Both the position numbers and the translations under genes were made by a program. The notes under the pieces were generated by a model. That model was not told the DNA's origin and did no database searches. It saw only the letters and a list, made by a program, of their open reading frames with translations. From an uncultured virus (IMG/VR IMGVR_UViG_3300031885_002559) (lineage: Duplodnaviria; Heunggongvirae; Uroviricota; Caudoviricetes), in IMG/VR virus record IMGVR_UViG_3300031885_002559: a stretch of DNA of 64,000 nucleotides; one strand, 5' to 3'. Position 1 is the first letter of the stretch; every line of letters starts with the position of its first letter. Positions 2,228 through 32,996 of this stretch are shown piece by piece.

Positions 2228-3369
2228 ACGCGCTTCAGTTGCAGACCAGAAAGGAACCCGTTCGCCTTAACGGCGACCACGTCGTCACTGCTTAGAACGA
2301 GGTTCACTTTGACGTAGTTGTCGTTTTCGACAAACGTGCCTGCTCCAGTTGGAGCGTTGGTCAGCACTGTTGGCGCACCTGCGTTGACAGAAACGTAGAA
2401 GTCGGTTGCGTTGGGGCCGGAAGTCGTGTCCGCGTAGAGGAACAGCGTATACGTTGCAGGCGGTATGCCTTTCAGATTGAACTCGTTCGTAATCGGCACG
2501 CTGAACATGTCGTAGCCGCCGACGTACGTGGCGAGCATCGAGTCAAAAGAAGCGTGGCTGCCTGCGTCCGTAGAGAGCGGAGCCACCTTTTCCAGTCGAA
2601 CACTGGTCTTAGCCCCACGGTAATCGTGAAGCCACTGGAATGGAGTCGCGCTGAAAGCCCTACCCGCGTACGCCGAGAAGTGGCAAGACGCGTCCACTGT
2701 CTCCGTGAATGCGGTCGGCGCGTACACGTTCCAGAAGTCTGTCCCTGTAAATCCAGCCGCAGCTAAGCCGGTCTTAGCCCCGCTACCGTTGAAATCAATG
2801 CTGAGCAGGTAGTTCGGCGTACCGACGAGCGCGTTGACGAAGTAGCGCACCCCGGAAACAACCGTGGACAAAATGCCCTCGTTGGTTGTGCGCGTAACCC
2901 GGTCTGGCGCAAACCGGAGCTTGCCGCCCTGACCGGGTACCCAGTTTTCGCTAAGCGTCCTGAAGTGGCGGCTCACCACCACGGGGTTCATGGCACTGCC
3001 GTTGAAGTAGACCCCAAGAAAAACTTCGTCAGAAACGGGCAAGCCCAGCCGAGTGCCTCGGGAGATCGACATTCCGGTGTGTACACTCACCTCACCCAAG
3101 CCGCCGACCACGGTGCTCACACCAAGGCCGTGGTCAATCGTAACTTCATTCGTACGCTTGGGCTGGGACGCCTTCCATGAGGGCTGCGCGTTGACAATGC
3201 CTACAACAACGCCGTCACCCGGAGCAACCGCCGGTTCACCGGATGGAAGCCGCAGCGTGTAGCCGAGGTTGACGAGCCCTTCCTGCGCGTAGGGGTAGAG
3301 GAGAGTTGAGTTCCGGGCGCACGGAGGCCGGAGCTTGGCGAAAACCGCTTTGGCTGTGGCTGCGCTCAT
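2224..3369 (-). CDS. Putative virion protein with degenerate M23-peptidase-like N-terminal domain
   Basis: AVAPGDGVVV...VTIDHGLGVSTVVGGL..VSVHTGMSISRGTRLG follows the M23 pattern but lacks the metal-binding His residues; beta-rich C-terminus. Confidence 0.5.
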   Translation of the reverse strand: MSAATAKAVFAKLRPPCARNSTLLYPYAQEGLVNLGYTLRLPSGEPAVAPGDGVVVGIVNAQPSWKASQPKRTNEVTIDHGLGVSTVVGGLGEVSVHTGMSISRGTRLGLPVSDEVFLGVYFNGSAMNPVVVSRHFRTLSENWVPGQGGKLRFAPDRVTRTTNEGILSTVVSGVRYFVNALVGTPNYLLSIDFNGSGAKTGLAAAGFTGTDFWNVYAPTAFTETVDASCHFSAYAGRAFSATPFQWLHDYRGAKTSVRLEKVAPLSTDAGSHASFDSMLATYVGGYDMFSVPITNEFNLKGIPPATYTLFLYADTTSGPNATDFYVSVNAGAPTVLTNAPTGAGTFVENDNYVKVNLVLSSDDVVAVKANGFLSGLQLKRV

Positions 3370-16170: not shown

Positions 16171-17487
16171 ATGGCGCAAAAGTTCCAGCTTGAAGGCCGG
16201 GCACTGACCCAGTTTGAACTGGTGATGCCGAACCGTACAACGACCGTGCTCGACAGCGGCCTTGTGAGTTATATTGGCAGCACGCTCAACGACTCTGTAT
16301 ACGCTTCAGCCGTATACAACCACCGGCTAACCACCGTCACGCTCGACGTAGTGGACCGGCTGCTGCGTCAGGCGATGGCGACACCAACGCCGAGGTTGCG
16401 CTTCAGGCTGGGCGTTGGCAACCCGGACTACGCGTACTGGTTGCCGTGGCAGAACCACGTCATCATCACGTACAGCACCAGTCCAACCAGCATCGGCGAC
16501 ACGTCCGGCCACCTCATCCACATCGTTACCGGCGACGAGATATACGCCAACAACCGGGCGTCGAAGGTCGCTGCCCGCAAGGGGAAGATCAGCGACATCA
16601 TCAGGAGCATCGCCGCCGAAAACTCTTGGAAAGACCTCGTCATCGAGCCCACCGTAGGCGAAGGCGTATACACGCAGACGTTTGAGTCAGACGTGGAGTT
16701 CATCCGCAATCGGCTGGTTCGCCGGGCACTCAACTCCAAGGGCTTTGCCAACTACCTCTTCTACTTCAAAGACGGCGTGCTCCACTTTCACACGCCAGAG
16801 TACCAAGCAGGCGTCGTGCGAATGCCGTTTTACCAGATGGCGGGCTCAGCCCTCACTCAGACGGACTACAGCCAAAAGCTCTTCGAGCGCGGCATCGCTG
16901 GCGTCAGGATGATTGCGCACGATCCGTATACAGGAGAAAGCCGCGAGATTCTGAGCAACCCGTCCAAAGCGATTCGGTACGCAGATTCAACGTACCCCAC
17001 TGCCGGGCTCAGCGGGGCGCAGCTCAACATCCCCTACCACCTGAGCACGAACCCGCCCGAAGAAGCGGCAGCGCTTGCGCAGGCCAGCTACGCCGAGACA
17101 CATTTTGCCGGGTTCCAGATCAAGGCTGACATCGACAAGTTCATCGGTGTACGGGCAGGCGACATCGTGGACTTCCTGCTCACGCCACGCCTCGACAGCG
17201 CCTCGCCGTGGTCAGGCAACTGGCTGGTGTCGGAAGTCGTCCACGATGTTGACCAAGGGTCAGTGACTAGCCGGTACTCACTCATCCGTGGGGAGATCAA
17301 GAAGACGCGGGCCAACGTGAGCGTGGGAGCTGCTGGAAGCCAACTGGTGCCTGAGCAGGAAGCCCCCGGCCAAGACCTGAACCTGCCAGAAATCAACACC
17401 AGCGAACGGACGAAGGGGGCTGCAAAACAAACGCCCGGCAGAGTGTTTACAACCCTGTCGGACGCGAGCAAAGCACCGCTCGGTTAA
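16171..17487 (+). CDS. Baseplate hub protein (gp27/gpD/VgrG-like)
   Basis: GKISDIIRSIA, QTFESDVEFI, YLFYFKDGVLHF, WSGNWLVSEVVHDV motifs. Confidence 0.75.
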   Translation: MAQKFQLEGRALTQFELVMPNRTTTVLDSGLVSYIGSTLNDSVYASAVYNHRLTTVTLDVVDRLLRQAMATPTPRLRFRLGVGNPDYAYWLPWQNHVIITYSTSPTSIGDTSGHLIHIVTGDEIYANNRASKVAARKGKISDIIRSIAAENSWKDLVIEPTVGEGVYTQTFESDVEFIRNRLVRRALNSKGFANYLFYFKDGVLHFHTPEYQAGVVRMPFYQMAGSALTQTDYSQKLFERGIAGVRMIAHDPYTGESREILSNPSKAIRYADSTYPTAGLSGAQLNIPYHLSTNPPEEAAALAQASYAETHFAGFQIKADIDKFIGVRAGDIVDFLLTPRLDSASPWSGNWLVSEVVHDVDQGSVTSRYSLIRGEIKKTRANVSVGAAGSQLVPEQEAPGQDLNLPEINTSERTKGAAKQTPGRVFTTLSDASKAPLG

Positions 17488-17963: not shown

Positions 17964-19292
17964 TCAGGCTTCAACAGGCTCTTCTTCGAGTTCCTCTTCA
18001 GCCTCGCCTTCAGCTTCCGGTTCGGTGTCCTCCGTAGGCTCGGGCACGGCAAGCTCTTCTTCGCCTTCGCCCTCACCGGTTGGAGCCTCGGGGGCTTCTT
18101 CCGGGGGCGGCGCGAGCGCCGTCACGAGCTGCTGGAGCAGATCGCGCATCTGGTTGAGGATGCCGAGGGCGCTGTCACCTTCGGTATCAGCACCAAGCGC
18201 GCTGTCGCTGATCGGGGGCTCCATCGGAGGAAGCTCTTCATCAGGCATGGCCTCGGGCGACGCGCCAAACTCTGGCGTCGGCGGAGCACCCTGCTCATCA
18301 TCCAGCATCTCTTCGACGAGCTTGATCGCCTCTTGGATGTCTGTATCAATCGTCTTCATAGTTTCGCCATTCGATGTAACTACACGCGCAGTTTCGAGAC
18401 TCTCGCCGTACCGTGCTGCGCGGTATTGAGCAACGGTCGGAAATCCACCGGTCTGTACTTTGCCTTTGGTCTTCTCCAAACCCGCAGGCTTCTTACTTGT
18501 ATACGTTGGCCACCGGTTGGGGCGCTGTGCGTAGGGCACTACAACGCGGCGCAAGGCTGCTTCTTCGTCCTCGGGCGGCGGGGGGAGTTCAACTTCCGGC
18601 GGAAGCGCTGGAGCGCCGCGCTCTGGTCGGCCCGGACGAGCTGGGCGCGGCAGGCGCGGGCCTTCAGGCGCAATCTCTGCCTCGGGCGGCGCAGGAAGCT
18701 CAGGCCCGACCTGATTCCGAAGCTGAGCCCGCTGGCGAACAAGTTCTGCACGATCACGTGCCGCCGCCATTGCACCGGGAAAATCCGTCCAACGCTTGGT
18801 CGCGTACGTGAGCAGCTTGTCGAACTTCTCAGAGGTATCGGGCTGGTTGTTGGGAAACGCCGAGAGCAGGCCGTAGATGTACCCGCGCATGGCCAAGACG
18901 TGCTTACACAATCCGGGCACTGCTTTCGGGTTGGTCCTGCGCGGAGCCCTGTTCCACGCTTGGTTCAGGCTGCGCGCCCCGACAGCTCCAGAGCCCTTCT
19001 GCTTGTTGGCCCATGCCCAGCGATACCGAAAATCAGGGCAGGTGCAGTCCACGAGGCACTCAAGGTGCTGAAGAGGCTTCTGCTGCCGGTTACGGGGCCT
19101 GAAAAACTTCACGTACCCCCGGTGGCGCAGCCCGGTCGTGTTCGTACGGTGCGAGCGGAAATTGAAGGCGTAGTATACGGCGTCCCGGTAGGAGTCGATG
19201 TCCAGAGGCGGCCCGTTTACGTCCAGCGAACGGGTTACCCGCTTCGGATCGCTGATCCGAAACAGCTCATCGAATGTCATCCGGCGTGGCAT
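17964..19292 (-). CDS. SWIM-type Zn-finger protein with acidic Pro-rich tail
   Basis: CTCPDF...GLCKH; low-complexity C-terminus. Confidence 0.65.
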   Translation of the reverse strand: MPRRMTFDELFRISDPKRVTRSLDVNGPPLDIDSYRDAVYYAFNFRSHRTNTTGLRHRGYVKFFRPRNRQQKPLQHLECLVDCTCPDFRYRWAWANKQKGSGAVGARSLNQAWNRAPRRTNPKAVPGLCKHVLAMRGYIYGLLSAFPNNQPDTSEKFDKLLTYATKRWTDFPGAMAAARDRAELVRQRAQLRNQVGPELPAPPEAEIAPEGPRLPRPARPGRPERGAPALPPEVELPPPPEDEEAALRRVVVPYAQRPNRWPTYTSKKPAGLEKTKGKVQTGGFPTVAQYRAARYGESLETARVVTSNGETMKTIDTDIQEAIKLVEEMLDDEQGAPPTPEFGASPEAMPDEELPPMEPPISDSALGADTEGDSALGILNQMRDLLQQLVTALAPPPEEAPEAPTGEGEGEEELAVPEPTEDTEPEAEGEAEEELEEEPVEA

Positions 19293-27877: not shown

Positions 27878-28567
27878 CTACGCGGTCTTCCCGACACGTT
27901 TGGCCAGCTCGCCCAAGGCGTGCAGAAGCTCAGCCTCGCTGGAAACCAAAAACCGGCTATCCGGGTCGTAGTGCCCTATGACCTCTAGCTCCACACTGCC
28001 CTTGCCCGGCTCCGGCACGTTCTTGTGAACCGTGGCGTATACGCGCCAGATACGTCGGCTATTCGGCGTCCAGTCCAGCAGGATGTCACGCCGATCCAAA
28101 GGCCGGTCAAATTGACCAACCGTAAACACGTACTTGAACCCAAAGTCTTTCAGAATGCGGAGGAAGGCCACGTGCGGAAAGGCGTACTCCTTCGGGTTGA
28201 ACTCGAAGTCGTCTTCGTCCTCGTCTTCCAGCAGCGACTCGCCGAGCACAAACCGGACAGGAATGGTGTCGAGCCCCAGTTTGTAGGCCGCCCAGACCCG
28301 ATGATGGCCGTTGCGCATGACGAGACGCCCGTTCCAGTCCTCGACCTGCACCGGCTGGCGTATACCTTTCTTGCGGATCGAGTCCAGAAACTTGTCCCAG
28401 TACGCCGGGTCCAACTGGTAGTGATTGCGCTCGATGTAGGCGAAGATGTCCGGCCACGTCCGCAGGCCGTAGTCCACCGGCTCGATCTCGGCGTACACGC
28501 GCTGGATTGGAACGCGCTCGACGCGCACCTCCTCCAGCAAAGCCTGCACGACACCCTGCGCGCTCAT
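27878..28567 (-). CDS. ParB/Srx-like N-terminal domain protein
   Basis: SIRKKGIRQPVQV...MRNGHHRVWAAYKLG..IPV. Confidence 0.75.
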   Translation of the reverse strand: MSAQGVVQALLEEVRVERVPIQRVYAEIEPVDYGLRTWPDIFAYIERNHYQLDPAYWDKFLDSIRKKGIRQPVQVEDWNGRLVMRNGHHRVWAAYKLGLDTIPVRFVLGESLLEDEDEDDFEFNPKEYAFPHVAFLRILKDFGFKYVFTVGQFDRPLDRRDILLDWTPNSRRIWRVYATVHKNVPEPGKGSVELEVIGHYDPDSRFLVSSEAELLHALGELAKRVGKTA

Positions 28568-29043
28568 AGGGTCGATCCACAGCCTCCAGCGCCGGGGCTG
28601 CCCCCAGAGCCACCGCAGCATCCTCCGCCGCCTCCTGAGCCCCCTGTGGAGCCGCCGCTGGTGCCTCCTGTGCTCCCTCCAGCTCCACCGCCGCCTGAAT
28701 TGTTGCCGATGCCCCCACCGCCCGGTGCCGGGCCGCTGGACGATGCGCCGCCGGGCTGCGGGCCGCCGGTCGGTGCTGCGAAGTTGTGCCCGTACTGCTG
28801 CGAGGGCGTCAGCGTGCCCTCTGGGATCGTGATGATTGCCTCGACCTGCGGCTGGTTGTTCGGAAACGTCGAGCCTGCCGCGCCGGGACCGGTGGCCGGA
28901 ATCATGACGGGAACGTTGTTAGCGCCCTGTGACACGGACATGTGCGCGAAGTAGTACGGGTCGTACTTGTACTGCACAACCGTTCGCGTGCGCCGAGGAA
29001 AAGCGCCGACTCGGGCTAGCTCTGGAGGCGTTGGTGTAGCCAC
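28564..29043 (-). CDS. Gly-rich hypothetical protein
   Basis: Poly-Gly C-terminus; preceded by GTAGCTA, a variant of the late motif. Confidence 0.5.
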   Translation of the reverse strand: MATPTPPELARVGAFPRRTRTVVQYKYDPYYFAHMSVSQGANNVPVMIPATGPGAAGSTFPNNQPQVEAIITIPEGTLTPSQQYGHNFAAPTGGPQPGGASSSGPAPGGGGIGNNSGGGGAGGSTGGTSGGSTGGSGGGGGCCGGSGGSPGAGGCGSTL

Positions 29044-29201
29044 GCTCTAGCTACAGTGTCAAAAAAGCGTGATTTTCTTGTTGCGCTTTATTGGGGTACG
29101 CGTATACGTAGCCACGAACGTCCGACCTTCACTGGTAGCCCGAGCGCCAAATCCGCTCTTAAAGCATCACGACTGTCTGACACAACCGAAAGTAAACCTG
29201 C

Positions 29202-29885
29202 ATGAGTAGTAACCTCGTTGGAGACGTAATCACCCTAACCCTCGCTGGCATCCGACCGTTTCTGTTTGCCAACGGACAATCCGCTGATCCTCTCGGCCCG
29301 TACTGGGAGAAGATTCAAGTGCTGCGCAGCAAGCGGAAGAAAACCCGAGCTGACTATGAGGCGCTGGAAGACCTCATGTGGTACAGCCAGCTCTACATCA
29401 ACGCCAAGGGACAACTGATTGTCCCCGCCATGAACGTATACGAGTCCATCCGCAAGGGTGCCTCGAAGTTCCGCATGGGCGAGGCGTTCAAGAGCGGCCT
29501 CTTCGTCGAAACCGATGACGAGGGCAGCGAGGGCTTCGTCATCGAGTACGAAGGCCCCAAAGACCCGAAGAAGATGCGCGCTGATCCGTGCTTCACGTTC
29601 CGCCGCATGACCCCGACCTCAACCGGTCAGCGCACACCCGTCGTCTACCCGATGATCAGCGGGTGGAAACTCCGCGTCAAGATCAACACCGATCCTTCGG
29701 TTCTTAACCCCAAAGACGTAATCCGCGCCTGCGTGCTGGCCGGGCGCTACGTGGCCATCGGCGGCCATCGGCCTCAGTTCGGGCGGTACCTCTGCGAGGA
29801 CGTTATGGTGAATGGAGAACCGGTCGCTATGGACGACGCCGCGACGCCCGAGCAGCCGAAGAGCCAGCCGAAGAGCAAGAAGTGA
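29202..29885 (+). CDS. Cas7/RAMP-like protein
   Basis: N-terminal strand ITLTLAGIRPFLF, IVPAMNVYESIRKGA helix, PMISGWKLRVKI strand and Gly-rich loop AGRYVAIGGHRPQFGRY match RAMP/Cas7 architecture; a repeat array follows. Confidence 0.7.
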   Translation: MSSNLVGDVITLTLAGIRPFLFANGQSADPLGPYWEKIQVLRSKRKKTRADYEALEDLMWYSQLYINAKGQLIVPAMNVYESIRKGASKFRMGEAFKSGLFVETDDEGSEGFVIEYEGPKDPKKMRADPCFTFRRMTPTSTGQRTPVVYPMISGWKLRVKINTDPSVLNPKDVIRACVLAGRYVAIGGHRPQFGRYLCEDVMVNGEPVAMDDAATPEQPKSQPKSKK

Positions 29886-29892
29886 GAAAACA

Positions 29893-30102
29893 ATGAGCGC
29901 GACCAACAGCTATCCGATTCTCCGTCACTGGAAAGTGCGGGTCACGCTCAGGACCGATCCTTCGGTCATTAGCCCCGAAAACGTGGTGCGCGCCTGTGCG
30001 CTAGCCGGTCGTAACGGCATAGGCGCGCACCATCCGAAGTTCGGTCAATTCGTCTGCCAAGATGTCAGAATAAACGGAAAGCCGATTAACCAGCACGAAT
30101 GA
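29893..30102 (+). CDS. Half-size paralogue of the C-terminal part of the RAMP-like protein
   Basis: YPILRHWKVRVTLRTDPSVISPENVVRACALAGRNGIGAHHPKFGQF aligns with YPMISGWKLRVKINTDPSVLNPKDVIRACVLAGRYVAIGGHRPQFGRY. Confidence 0.75.
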   Translation: MSATNSYPILRHWKVRVTLRTDPSVISPENVVRACALAGRNGIGAHHPKFGQFVCQDVRINGKPINQHE

Positions 30103-30620
30103 ACACTCTACCTGACCTGTCTACGCCGTGCGTCGAGCCGCCTACGGCGGAGGTCGCCCACCTCATCGTAACGAACTGCGCCTACGGTGACACAGTCCCT
30201 ATCACGTGGTTTGAGACCCAGTTTGGGGCCAAGGAGGGGAAGTGGCGCTTCACCGGCCCTATGATTCGAGTGCGGAGCTTACTCAAGCTACAAGGCCGGA
30301 AGCTGTCGCGCATTGGACGCGATGGTGTATACGTAGTGCTACACAAGGAAAGCCTAGTCCGCGTGGCCGCCCAACAAGCCAAAACGGCGGTGCGGACCCT
30401 TGGCGAAAACGCAAAAATGCTGAACGCCATAAGTCGTACCGGCATGGAGTCTGACGCTATCAGGCGCATGGATTACTGGCAGAACAAAACCGCGTTCATG
30501 CACCGGGTCGCGACCGAAGCGTTGACCATGCAGGAGATCCCCGAAGGCAGCAACATGCCAAAGCTGCTTGCGGATATGCTGCGGAATCCGAACAAGAAGA
30601 AGAAGCCGAAGGCTGAATGA
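30099..30620 (+). CDS. Accessory protein of the RAMP-array locus (possible winged-helix plus helical domain)
   Basis: Translationally coupled (ATGA); basic C-terminus; its stop codon sits inside a degenerate repeat. Confidence 0.6.
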   Translation: MNTLPDLSTPCVEPPTAEVAHLIVTNCAYGDTVPITWFETQFGAKEGKWRFTGPMIRVRSLLKLQGRKLSRIGRDGVYVVLHKESLVRVAAQQAKTAVRTLGENAKMLNAISRTGMESDAIRRMDYWQNKTAFMHRVATEALTMQEIPEGSNMPKLLADMLRNPNKKKKPKAE

Positions 30621-30681
30621 TTTCGACAATTTCCACCCGACACATTTCCCGTCTACTCCTTCCGTCACAAGACGCGACGTT

Positions 30682-31465
30682 ACAACCCACGGCCTCGCAA
30701 GAGGCCGAAGATTTCCCTCCCTGCCATCCCCCGCCAGCCCGAACCTGCACCCTCCCGCACAGTACACAACAACCCACGGCCTCGAAAGAGGCCGAAGATT
30801 TCTCTCCGTGCCAGCACGCCCCTCGCCACGCCACCCCTGCCCTCGTCCTTACAACCCACGGCCTTCAGCAATGGAGGCCGAAGATTTCAACCCCGCTCCT
30901 ACCAGCCCACCACAGCACCGGACAGTACCCCACAACCCACGGCCTCGAAAGAGGCCGAAGATTTCACGCCAGAACTCACCCGGTCAACACTCGACACCAC
31001 ACGCCAGCGCCCTACCGCGCACAACAACCCACGGCCTCGAAAGAGGCCGAAGATTTCTCTCCACGCCCCCACGGCCCAGAGCCCTACTGGACTCGCCAGT
31101 CCATGCCGTAACACAACAACCCACGGCCTCGAAAGAGGCCGAAGATTTCTCTCCACCCCAAGTCCGCACGTCCCCTGCCAAGCCACTACTGTCCACCACA
31201 GGACCAAACAACCCACGGCCTCGAAAGAGGCCGAAGATTTCCCTCCCCACCTCGTCAGCACCGCCCGGCCCTCGACTAGACCCCACCCTCCAACCCAGAA
31301 CAACCCACAGCCCGCCGGTCTTCTTGACGGCGGGCTGAAGTTCGTATACGTTGGATCGGACAAGGCGTCCCTTTTACGCCACGATTCCCGGCCATACTAT
31401 GCCCGGCAATACAAAGGCAGTGCAAAACAACCCACAGCCCCTCGCAAGAAGGGCTGAAGTTTTTC
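30682..31465. repeat. CRISPR-like array of nine hairpin repeats with 5-nt-periodic spacers
   Basis: Consensus ACAACCCACGGCCTCGAAAGAGGCCGAAGATTTC (34 nt) starting at 30682, 30769, 30851 (variant), 30932, 31024, 31116, 31208, 31300 (variant) and 31427 (variant). Spacers are 53, 48, 43, 58, 58, 58, 58 nt. Confidence 0.95.
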
Positions 31466-31472
31466 GGTATAC

Positions 31473-31505
31473 AAAAAGAGAGCCCCGGATTTCTCCGGGG
31501 CTCTC
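31473..31505 (-). terminator. Intrinsic terminator of the major capsid gene
   Basis: Minus strand GAGAGCCCCGGA-GAAA-TCCGGGGCTCTC-TTTTT. Confidence 0.85.
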
Positions 31506-31526
31506 GTGTCAAACTGGTCGCTCAGC

Positions 31527-32996
31527 TTAGCCAATGGTCTGGCCAAACGCTGTCGGCGAGTTCTGGATCAACCCTCGGCAATACATCTTCGAGTTGATCA
31601 TCTTCCGGGCGAACGAGGTCGCGAACCCGCGTTGATGGATGAAGTCCGGCAGAACGATGTCGGGCGTCGTATACAGTTTTTGGTACTCCGCCAGCACGTA
31701 CCCGGTCGTCAAGAATTGGTCGCCCTTGTGGCCGACCAGAAACTCGTTGTTCGGATAGTGGGGATCAGCAAAAACTTTTTTGTTCCCCAGATCACCGATG
31801 TAGGTGATGCCCTGCATCTGCACGCGGTTGTTCTTGGGAACGAACTGCGGCAGTGTCGCCACGACCGTCGCCGCCTGAAGGCCGAGCAGCAACCAGTTTC
31901 CGGCCACCATGTTCGTGGCACCGAAAATGAAATTGCTGGCCGTCTCGAAGGCGTCGATGATCGAGAACTTGTGGGTCTGGTAGTTGACGCTCGCCGGGGC
32001 GATGGCGTCCCACACCACGAAACCGGCGTCCGCTTTGGCGCGCAGGTCGAAGATCACCTGACGGTGCTTCTGATACTGCAATGCGTTCGTCAGGGCATTG
32101 AGCAGGACGCTCTCCGCCTTGATGTTGTACATCGCTTGCAGGTTCTGATCGGCTTCCTCGGACCAGAGCGTCTTCAGCTTCATCACCTTGGCGGTGACAG
32201 GAGTGCTGGAGAGCTTCATCTCGTAATCTTGGATCGCGAGATTGCCTTCCGAGTTGAACGCGTACGTCAGCGAGTACGCCGCCGTGTTGTGCGCGCCGTC
32301 CGTGAAGGTCAGCGTGCCCGCGCCCGTGCCCTGATAGACAATGGTGCCGACGCTGCCGTTGGTCGCCACGTCAATGATGTTGCCGTTGCCGTCGTCGCCG
32401 ACGGTTAGCCCACCTGCGGTGCCACTGATCGTACCGGCGCGGATCGGAGTCCATTCGAGGACAAGCACGCCACCACCGCTCGTGGTGCCACTCTCGTCCT
32501 GAACGACCTCATCAGCGTCGTCGTCGCGGTCCACTGCGCCCTGAAGCGCACGCCACATGGGAGCGCCAGCCGGGGTGCGGCCCTTGCGCCGACCGGTCAC
32601 GATGTCCATGTAGACGATCTGGCTCACTGGGCCAGCCATCGGCTGCACGGCCACCAACTGGTCGATCACGTCGTTCTCCGACATGTTCGCGATCACGGGG
32701 AAAATCCACTTGTCGAACGTTCCCAGTGATGTGGTGCGGGTGACTTCGTCGAGGCGGCCAAACCGGGAACGGCAGTTCTCCAGCATGATCGCAGCGACGG
32801 GCCGCTTGTGTTCGGGCATGTGCTGCACGAACTCTTTCCAGCCACGGGCTTCCCAAAGCCCACGCGTACTCTTCTCGGGGATTCCGACCGGGGTTTCAGC
32901 GAGACGGTGTCCCCATTCGAGGATTTCCGTGAAGCGGTTGATCTGACCGCCCTCACTCGCCAACATCGGTCTTCCTGACTCGTGTAGGATTACCAT
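31527..32996 (-). CDS. gp23: Major capsid protein, T4 gp23-like
   Basis: VAVQPMAGPVSQIVY, VTAKVMKLKTLWSEEADQNL, GDLGNKKVFADP, GYVLAEY motifs. Confidence 0.93.
   Translation of the reverse strand: MVILHESGRPMLASEGGQINRFTEILEWGHRLAETPVGIPEKSTRGLWEARGWKEFVQHMPEHKRPVAAIMLENCRSRFGRLDEVTRTTSLGTFDKWIFPVIANMSENDVIDQLVAVQPMAGPVSQIVYMDIVTGRRKGRTPAGAPMWRALQGAVDRDDDADEVVQDESGTTSGGGVLVLEWTPIRAGTISGTAGGLTVGDDGNGNIIDVATNGSVGTIVYQGTGAGTLTFTDGAHNTAAYSLTYAFNSEGNLAIQDYEMKLSSTPVTAKVMKLKTLWSEEADQNLQAMYNIKAESVLLNALTNALQYQKHRQVIFDLRAKADAGFVVWDAIAPASVNYQTHKFSIIDAFETASNFIFGATNMVAGNWLLLGLQAATVVATLPQFVPKNNRVQMQGITYIGDLGNKKVFADPHYPNNEFLVGHKGDQFLTTGYVLAEYQKLYTTPDIVLPDFIHQRGFATSFARKMINSKMYCRGLIQNSPTAFGQTIG

Follow-up and report, generated by a model that had tools for sequence, protein, structure and literature searches.

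The segment from position 29202 to 31466 of the 64,000-nt stretch of DNA analysed here (the window), which comes from an uncultured Caudoviricetes virus (IMG/VR record IMGVR_UViG_3300031885_002559), is probably a phage-encoded VIPR (Viral Interference Programmable Repeat) system with its guides on the + strand, made up of vipr, a 69-aa partial vipr duplicate, a vap-like gene and a nine-guide vrRNA array; we put the probability of this reading at roughly 0.78. The assignment is based on (i) a Vipr homolog encoded upstream of the array, (ii) 12-15 pentamers per unit and (iii) a structured element downstream of every tract. Systems of this kind are already known, having been described in preprints of April-October 2026, and we class the locus as a variant of them. 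Among the VIPR loci surveyed it is an outlier: the loss of guanine contacts in the protein and the loss of guanines from the motif were found combined in this locus only (87 loci, 150 family representatives). The features of the locus and of its immediate downstream flank are as follows.

29202..29885, + strand: vipr, 227 aa, a RAMP/Cas7-like subunit predicted from homology and fold to polymerise on guide RNA
29893..30102, + strand: 69-aa ORF that duplicates, in diverged form, the C-terminal module of Vipr (thumb base, helix and G-loop)
30099..30620, + strand: candidate vap-like protein, 173 aa, at the position that vap1 has in SUSP1 and LESphi2
30629..31466, + strand: vrRNA array, nine units in which a period-5 tract precedes ACAACCCAC, a hairpin and GAAG(A/T)TT
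30629-30693, 30711-30780, 30798-30862 and 30884-30943, + strand: tracts in register, units 1-4
30961-31035, 31053-31127, 31145-31219 and 31237-31311, + strand: tracts in register, units 5-8
31373-31438, + strand: degenerate ninth tract with one 6-nt slip
30682..30715, + strand: repeat/tail 1, 7-bp stem with GCAA loop (MFE -14.7 kcal/mol, z -4.5)
30851..30888, + strand: repeat/tail 3, a different and longer stem of 9 bp with GCAA loop between the common flanks (-16.1 kcal/mol)
31300..31345, + strand: repeat/tail 8, an unrelated long GC stem with the flanks ACAACCCAC and GAAGTT kept (-24 kcal/mol)
31427..31466, + strand: repeat/tail 9, a third stem variant with GCAA loop, then a TTTTT run (-13.2 kcal/mol)
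31478..31505, - strand: intrinsic terminator of the convergent major capsid gene, 12-bp stem then TTTTT
31527-32996, - strand: convergent Gp23-type major capsid gene (Pfam Gp23, E 4.5e-30)

Vipr is described as a minimal RAMP that polymerises with one protomer per 5-nt unit of guide RNA (PMC13142463; bioRxiv 10.64898/2026.04.26.720927), and the vrRNA as a run of 9-16 GGY-NN units that leads into a structured 3' tail (PMC13142463). According to the same accounts, GGY is sequestered by the protein and NN pairs with double-stranded DNA, every third target base being skipped (PMC13142463; bioRxiv 10.64898/2026.04.26.720927). Competing satellites and prophages are named as natural targets in the VIPR preprints of 2026 and, as far as these accounts extend, characterisation has so far been mainly in two GGY-type systems. 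Seven VIPR types have been published, and the authors allow for GGY 'or a related consensus' (PMC13142463), a wording that may already cover the motif described below. The present locus does not show GGY: its sense trio is n-(C/A)-C and its antisense trio G-(G/T)-N, the comparison being with the GGY consensus.

The ACAACCCACRGCC motif is present in nine copies, all on the + strand (at 30682, 30769, 30851, 30932, 31024, 31116, 31208, 31300 and 31427); shuffled windows contained a mean of 0.17 matches. A regular tract was defined as the sequence that separates the end of GAAGATTTC from the next ACAACCCAC, and pentamers were parsed from the repeat end. The seven regular inter-repeat tracts measure 53, 48, 43, 58, 58, 58 and 58 nt, the lengths, differing by multiples of 5, that had been listed in the original prediction. 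Its central claim, an invariant C at every fifth base, was borne out by base counts modulo 5, position 5 being C in 71 of 71 pentamers. When the tracts were shuffled 20,000 times and each shuffled tract was scored in its best phase, a mean of 52.6 and a maximum of 63 were obtained, and none of the shuffles reached 71 (the C fraction of the tracts is 0.52). The periodicity is highly non-random. Position 4 is occupied by C (38), A (25), T (5) or G (3), i.e. by C or A in 63 of the 71 pentamers, in keeping with the earlier description of the tracts as mostly NNNCC or NNNAC; the information content of positions 1-3 is 0.15-0.26 bits apiece. The repeat flanks share the register (ATTTC before; ACAAC AACCC ACGGC after), so that each unit comprises 12-15 pentamers, against the published 9-16. 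Ahead of the first repeat, all 13 pentamers counted from 30629 end in C. Before the last one, eight in-register pentamers (31373-31412) are followed by a 6-nt step (31413-31418), after which the register is restored through 31438; both this single slip and the extension ahead of the first repeat had been anticipated.

ORFs spanning the array are frame-shifting repeats and non-coding. Two other period-5 runs in the window (16998-17038 and 18605-18650) lack the tail motif and are at chance level. The exact repeat pattern was found at 13 loci in IMG/VR, of which one is genuine and represents the same phage, its contig being broken within the array (L007). A blastn comparison of the array with 50,697 phage records gave no match, an Rfam scan of 29500-32500 (E<=10) gave sub-threshold matches only, and a literature search for pentanucleotide periodicity in bacteriophage found none.

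Read on the + strand, all nine tracts have ACAACCCAC and a hairpin after them, which on this reading make a structured 3' tail. None of 200 shuffles folds as well as repeat/tail 1. Copies equivalent to it, with GAAA loops, start at 30769, 30932, 31024, 31116 and 31208, and folding of the whole array recovers the hairpins as they are in single repeats. The stem sequence of repeat/tail 3 differs from that of the other copies with the pairing kept. Overall, seven of the nine copies are nearly identical, and copies 8 and 9 retain only the flanks. Three different stems between identical flanks indicate that pairing is conserved rather than stem sequence. The TTTTT run after repeat/tail 9 is a possible end of the + strand transcript. 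The terminator that follows it, on the opposite strand, belongs to the capsid gene; it marks the boundary of the array and lies outside the VIPR system.

The 227-aa protein matched the PDB chain 36pp_D, 'SUSP1 Vipr protein', in a phmmer search (E 5.4e-12, residues 10-203, 23% identity), and a profile of its family matched PDB 36pp at E 5e-8; 36pp is one solved structure, matched by both profile and protein. It also matches phrog_4652 (E 5e-27), as does SUSP1 Vipr (1.4e-96). The AF2 model (pLDDT 84) has a predicted RAMP fold with thumb and G-loop, and its best Foldseek matches are Csm3, type VII Cas7 and Csf2 (E about 1e-5). The reading frame of vipr is intact, and the Vipr family counts 4566 representatives at E<=1e-3. 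Word-based homolog searches with Vipr and with the 173-aa protein each returned the query only, and searches for related loci with Vipr alone or the 173-aa protein yielded no usable loci in viral or metagenome contigs. For this locus, the guide mechanism would follow from the homology of Vipr to an experimentally characterised system.

The 69-aa ORF, which lies between vipr and the candidate accessory gene, is 53% identical to Vipr residues 149-208 (E 3e-26); a longer reading of this ORF (29812-30102) matches the C-terminal part of phrog_4652 at E 5e-6. The duplicate differs from Vipr by a dN of 0.28 and a dS of 1.09 (Nei-Gojobori; dN/dS about 0.26), and has therefore been under purifying selection since the duplication. 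The 173-aa protein shows weak similarity, confined to its N-terminus, to SUSP1 vap1 (E 0.006), to its LESphi2 counterpart (E 0.003) and to phrog_5926 (E 0.053). It matched no Pfam family, and its ESM Atlas neighbours are viral hypothetical proteins. MarR/HTH models came up for it at TM 0.36-0.49 only, a lead and nothing firmer.

Downstream of the array, an S77 prohead protease gene comes after the capsid gene, and the window also contains a long tape-measure-like ORF; the locus is thus encoded by a phage, to which 73 viral contigs are related. Two capsid relatives (L044 and L015) have, in the same place in the genome, 700-800 nt of period-5 sequence that lacks hairpin repeats, and the tracts of both adjoin phrog_4652 genes, the PHROG to which the 227-aa protein also belongs.

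A 34-nt hairpin repeat with variable inserts and a 92-nt period could also be taken for a CRISPR array, whether a phage mini-array or an RNA anti-CRISPR mimicking a host repeat, with ordinary acquired spacers, and there is a weak Rfam match to CRISPR-DR46 (20.2 bits, E 8.8). That score is far under the gathering score of 50, however, and this reading is effectively refuted by the periodicity: a periodic C in every one of 71 pentamers cannot come from acquired foreign DNA, as the original prediction had rightly argued, and tract lengths change in 5-nt steps. The tracts are therefore not CRISPR spacers, although they had been given that name; the minus-strand form G(G/T)NNN proposed along with it is correct and is simply the complement. 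Moreover, the adjoining RAMP is Vipr and not a Cas7 of known type, none of the 11 flanking ORFs scanned matches a Cas family in Pfam, and neither cas1/cas2 nor cas6 nor a large subunit was seen among them. There is nonetheless a real likeness to class 1 CRISPR crRNA on a Cas7/Csm3 backbone, namely a RAMP fold with thumb and G-loop, one subunit per fixed guide step, periodic bases excluded from pairing, and the order short 5' flank, guide, 3' hairpin, which is the layout of Cas6-processed crRNA. The differences are that the step is 5 nt and not 6, that the excluded bases are sequence-specific and that the guides are not acquired spacers.

TRAP (trp RNA-binding attenuation protein), which binds 11 (G/U)AG triplets spaced 2-3 nt, offers another likeness in its roughly 5-nt period of a short fixed motif with one subunit each. 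It differs in having an unrelated fold, in forming a ring and not a filament and in having no guide function, and no TRAP homolog was seen at the locus. A TRAP-like ring, a Rho rut site, a G-quadruplex or i-motif, a Chi-site array, a DGR template and pentapeptide coding were all considered and dropped on the Vipr homology.

For the family survey, a six-protein Vipr alignment was used to fetch 80 IMG/VR loci, all of which were oriented by vipr. Period-5 runs of at least 8 units are present in 80 of 80 of these vipr loci, and runs of this length also occur in six of six annotated phages (SUSP1, LESphi2, LittleE, Medea1, MakoManhole and phiHSIC). On the sense strand, G dominates the periodic signal in 58 of the 80 loci and C in 6; in the other 16 the signal is a mixture of the two (GGC units).

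In SUSP1 Vipr, the residues reported to hold the two guanines are H17, R138, D177 and W178, with H17 and D177 holding G1. In the alignment, the window has A at H17, Y at R138, G at D177 and H at W178. The changes at H17, R138 and D177 are real substitutions, whereas the W178 position varies across the family anyway; at the R138, D177 and W178 positions the 69-aa duplicate has Y, A and H. Arg occupies the R138 position in 145 of 150 family representatives and in 85 of the 87 loci surveyed; the D177 position is acidic (Asp or Glu) in 85 of these 87, and the H17 position is variable. The only other locus without Arg at R138 is that of phiHSIC, which has Ala there and a G-C-A-N-N motif with C, not G, as second base; to judge from the alignment, this coincidence fits the structural role of R138. 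In the window, the sense strand has the invariant C with no enrichment of G before it, which gives n-(C/A)-C. Five surveyed loci (L149, L152, L154, L159 and L163) also have an invariant C on the sense strand, with G at 54-66% at the two preceding positions and Ala or Ser at H17, and on these sequence features they resemble an intermediate stage from canonical GGY to the form in the window. Their likeness to the window extends to AAGAWTT at the unit ends. They differ in the G before the C, in keeping R138 and D177 and in having A-rich tails (CAAGGAAAC...AAAGATTT) without hairpin, and their Vipr proteins are ~30-32% identical to that of the window.

The guides are, in our judgement, quite probably read on the + strand. 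The canonical G-G-Y is on the vipr-sense strand in all comparators, and the C-anchored relatives are evidence that the family can have its invariant C on the sense strand. AAGAWTT occurs 7 times on the + strand and 0 times on the minus strand in the window, and 8 and 0 times, respectively, in L152, where six of the eight copies are at unit ends. Eight of the nine + strand loops are GNRA, and the + strand order, tract then hairpin nine times over, supplies every tract with a 3' tail, as in published VIPR.

The alternative is a VIPR system with minus-strand guides of the form G-(G/T)-N-N-N, its array inverted relative to vipr and expressed by terminator read-through or from a promoter of its own, in which the invariant G would keep the role of G1. 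G is indeed invariant in the vrRNAs described in PMC13142463 and dominates in 58 of the 80 surveyed loci, and the order of conservation (first base invariant, second relaxed, third free) resembles the G-C-A of phiHSIC. The repeats also fold more stably on the minus strand, by 3.8 kcal/mol (-18.5 against -14.7 kcal/mol), with five extra flank pairs that on the + strand need G-U or cannot form. A U-G pair in repeat 9 forms only on the minus strand, but one in repeat 3 forms on the + strand; with one wobble each way, such pairs do not settle the strand. However, both residues that hold G1 in SUSP1 (H17 and D177) are replaced in the window, the array would be the sole case antisense to vipr among the 87 surveyed loci, and AAGAWTT, which the C-anchored relatives have as well, is a + strand motif in the window. 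The order hairpin-tract would, in addition, leave the last tract (30693 back to 30629) without a 3' tail, and the ~15 nt between the capsid terminator and repeat 9 leave no room for a minus-strand promoter. A scan for promoters and terminators gave nothing decisive on either strand. Taken with the evidence on both sides, minus-strand guides seem to us unlikely.

On the preferred + strand reading, the array would be transcribed together with the genes and cut into ~90-nt units, each RNA of ~85-95 nt starting near AUUUC or GAAGAUUUC and ending after the hairpin. A unit would consist of a tract of 12-15 pentamers that ends in the conserved ACAAC AACCC AC, followed by a GNRA-loop hairpin as 3' tail. 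One Vipr subunit would bind each pentamer and hold its fixed bases, a filament thus being formed along the tract. The invariant C would correspond to Y3 of GGY, the preceding C/A to G2 and the base before it, free here, to G1. The first two bases of the pentamers would be exposed as the guide pair and would jointly read a double-stranded DNA target discontinuously, presumably, by analogy with SUSP1, with two bases read and one skipped; the predicted outcome is silencing of a competing phage or satellite. From the letters of the array it had been proposed that one protein subunit per pentamer grips fixed bases and that the variable ones form a non-contiguous code; this mechanism has been demonstrated experimentally for VIPR, and by homology it would apply here.

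Targets were sought in two ways. A mismatch-tolerant search of the window and the fetched loci (up to 1.07 Mb, both strands), run with guide positions (1,2), (2,3), (1,2,3) and (3,4) and skips of 0-3, found no signal that exceeded the shuffled-order controls. Exact gapped patterns gave 0 matches in viral contigs for unit 5 under both position choices and for unit 7 under (1,2). Under (2,3), unit 7 had two exact matches in metagenome contigs and three in genome contigs; we attribute these five to chance, because they lie in three unrelated genes (GNAT-like, HNH/DUF222-like and MerR-like, named by eye) and in three frames, and their flanks do not extend the match. A codon-composition test for the two guide bases was driven by composition and set aside as uninformative.

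That no target came up in these searches, and that the G-contacting residues of Vipr are lost, would agree with a different function for the tracts, as an RNA or DNA decoy or sponge titrating a C-binding protein of the host or of a rival, or with a decaying remnant of a VIPR array, put out of action by the loss of these contacts; competitors and decoys are among the vrRNAs described in October 2026 (10.64898/2026.10.15.759431). Against this stand the intact vipr, the dN/dS of about 0.26 of the duplicated module and the perfect periodic C across nine units with free variation elsewhere, which points to ongoing selection. Population data bear on the same question. The locus was found in at least three sediment metagenome runs, and a variant contig present in three runs differs from unit 4 at six listed sites, which fall on pentamer positions 2, 4 (C to A), 2, 3, 2 and 3; none is on the invariant C, in a sample of six sites from one variant. 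Other strains, represented by short contigs, have different tracts beside the same repeats, a comparison of sequences that suggests guide turnover and is what would be expected of it. We regard a decoy or remnant as highly improbable.

A VIPR system with + strand guides thus remains the reading that we favour, and its closest likeness is to the type II VIPR of SUSP1, together with the P. fulva and LESphi2-like prophage systems. The likeness consists of phage encoding, the succession of vipr, a small (here putative) accessory gene and a downstream array of several ~100-nt units, 5-nt units numbering 9-16 per guide, an invariant structured 3' tail and Vipr homology. The locus departs from SUSP1 in its motif, n-(C/A)-C, where a single base is invariant, compared with the two invariant G of G-G-Y; in the residues at H17, R138, D177 and W178, which read A, Y, G and H; in its tail, a plain GNRA hairpin where SUSP1 has a pseudoknot; in its nine tightly packed units with a 92-nt period, as against three or four; and in the extra 69-aa partial copy of vipr.

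These departures allow a bolder interpretation, which we hold to be doubtful: a VIPR lineage with a rebuilt repeat-reading pocket, in which both guanine contacts have been lost, a single cytosine serves as anchor and a third base in each unit is freed, and which has two CRISPR-like traits besides. One trait may be the regular hairpin-repeat array, with a guide between a short 5' flank and a 3' hairpin; the other may be the small RAMP-derived protein kept under purifying selection, which could cap the filament or hold the hairpin. If true, such a lineage would be a living intermediate between single-RAMP VIPR and the multi-RAMP repeat-spacer effectors of CRISPR, and its recognition code would be naturally orthogonal.

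VIPR, a CRISPR-like silencer of DNA guided by RNA, has only recently been described; it aims proteins at DNA by a discontinuous RNA code, and its published principle was recovered in the original prediction from the raw sequence of this array alone. The locus may provide an orthogonal Vipr-RNA pair for engineering, and its hairpin-repeat array and extra RAMP fragment are relevant to the proposed transition from VIPR to CRISPR. For the family itself, the locus is a measure of how far the code can drift, with one invariant base against two or three. Of the four residues that contact the guanines, three have been substituted, two of these at near-fixed positions, and the locus is therefore a natural test of which residues set the motif.

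The interval that separates the major capsid gene from a conserved gene for a 159-aa protein was compared between the window (28564-31527) and three related loci (L017, L031 and L033). Its content differs across the phage family of the window: a VIPR cassette lies in it in the window itself, other arrays or an unrelated gene occupy it in relatives, and in L017 it measures only ~650 nt. Two genes from the cassette lies:

27878-28621, minus strand, gene for a 247-aa protein

The product matches the ParB N-terminal domain weakly (Pfam, E = 0.0018, below the cut-off), and also several ParB-like PHROG families (best E = 1.7e-7).

Arrays of two kinds were found in capsid relatives of the window:

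L029:5540-6640, non-coding array differing from that of the window, at the same site past the capsid terminator
L029:7820-8280, second array of the same type, 1.2 kb beyond the first
L044:5520-6250, period-5 tract, 700-800 nt, lacking hairpin repeats
L015:2540-3330, period-5 tract, 700-800 nt, also lacking hairpin repeats

In the first L029 array, GGCTCGCT and GGTGCTCT alternate at 18-nt spacing over ~1.1 kb; its reading frames are broken and it is therefore not one ORF. No phrog_4652 (vipr) gene was seen inside the L029 locus. In the L044 and L015 tracts, 1-nt register shifts are common, runs overlap, and the G-rich strand runs in the same direction as the adjoining phrog_4652 and phrog_15946 genes; these tracts may correspond to what the VIPR preprint terms 'staggered arrays'.

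Annotated phages add the following features:

L092:3605-3886, period-5 array of G-C-A-N-N units, phage phiHSIC
L089:4180-4230, T-arm-like sequence after a period-5 tract, actinophage LittleE (by eye)
L091:2960-3020 and 3090-3150, T-arm-like sequences after period-5 tracts, actinophage MakoManhole (by eye)

The phiHSIC array is overlapped by ORF21, a minus-strand 'hypothetical protein' that is probably a mis-called gene, because the array occupies the same stretch; LittleE shows a similar overlap, between its upstream array and annotated gene 35. The resemblance 3' of the actinophage tracts, judged by eye only, is to a tRNA T-arm with a GGTTCGA-type loop, which suggests tRNA-like tails as possible substrates for cleavage by tRNA-processing enzymes of the host.

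Metagenome contigs (runs X1-X4) end at repeats of the window (30866-30961 and repeat borders). In some, the same repeat is followed by other tracts or by sequence that does not resemble the window, so co-occurring strains seem to vary in what their arrays contain.
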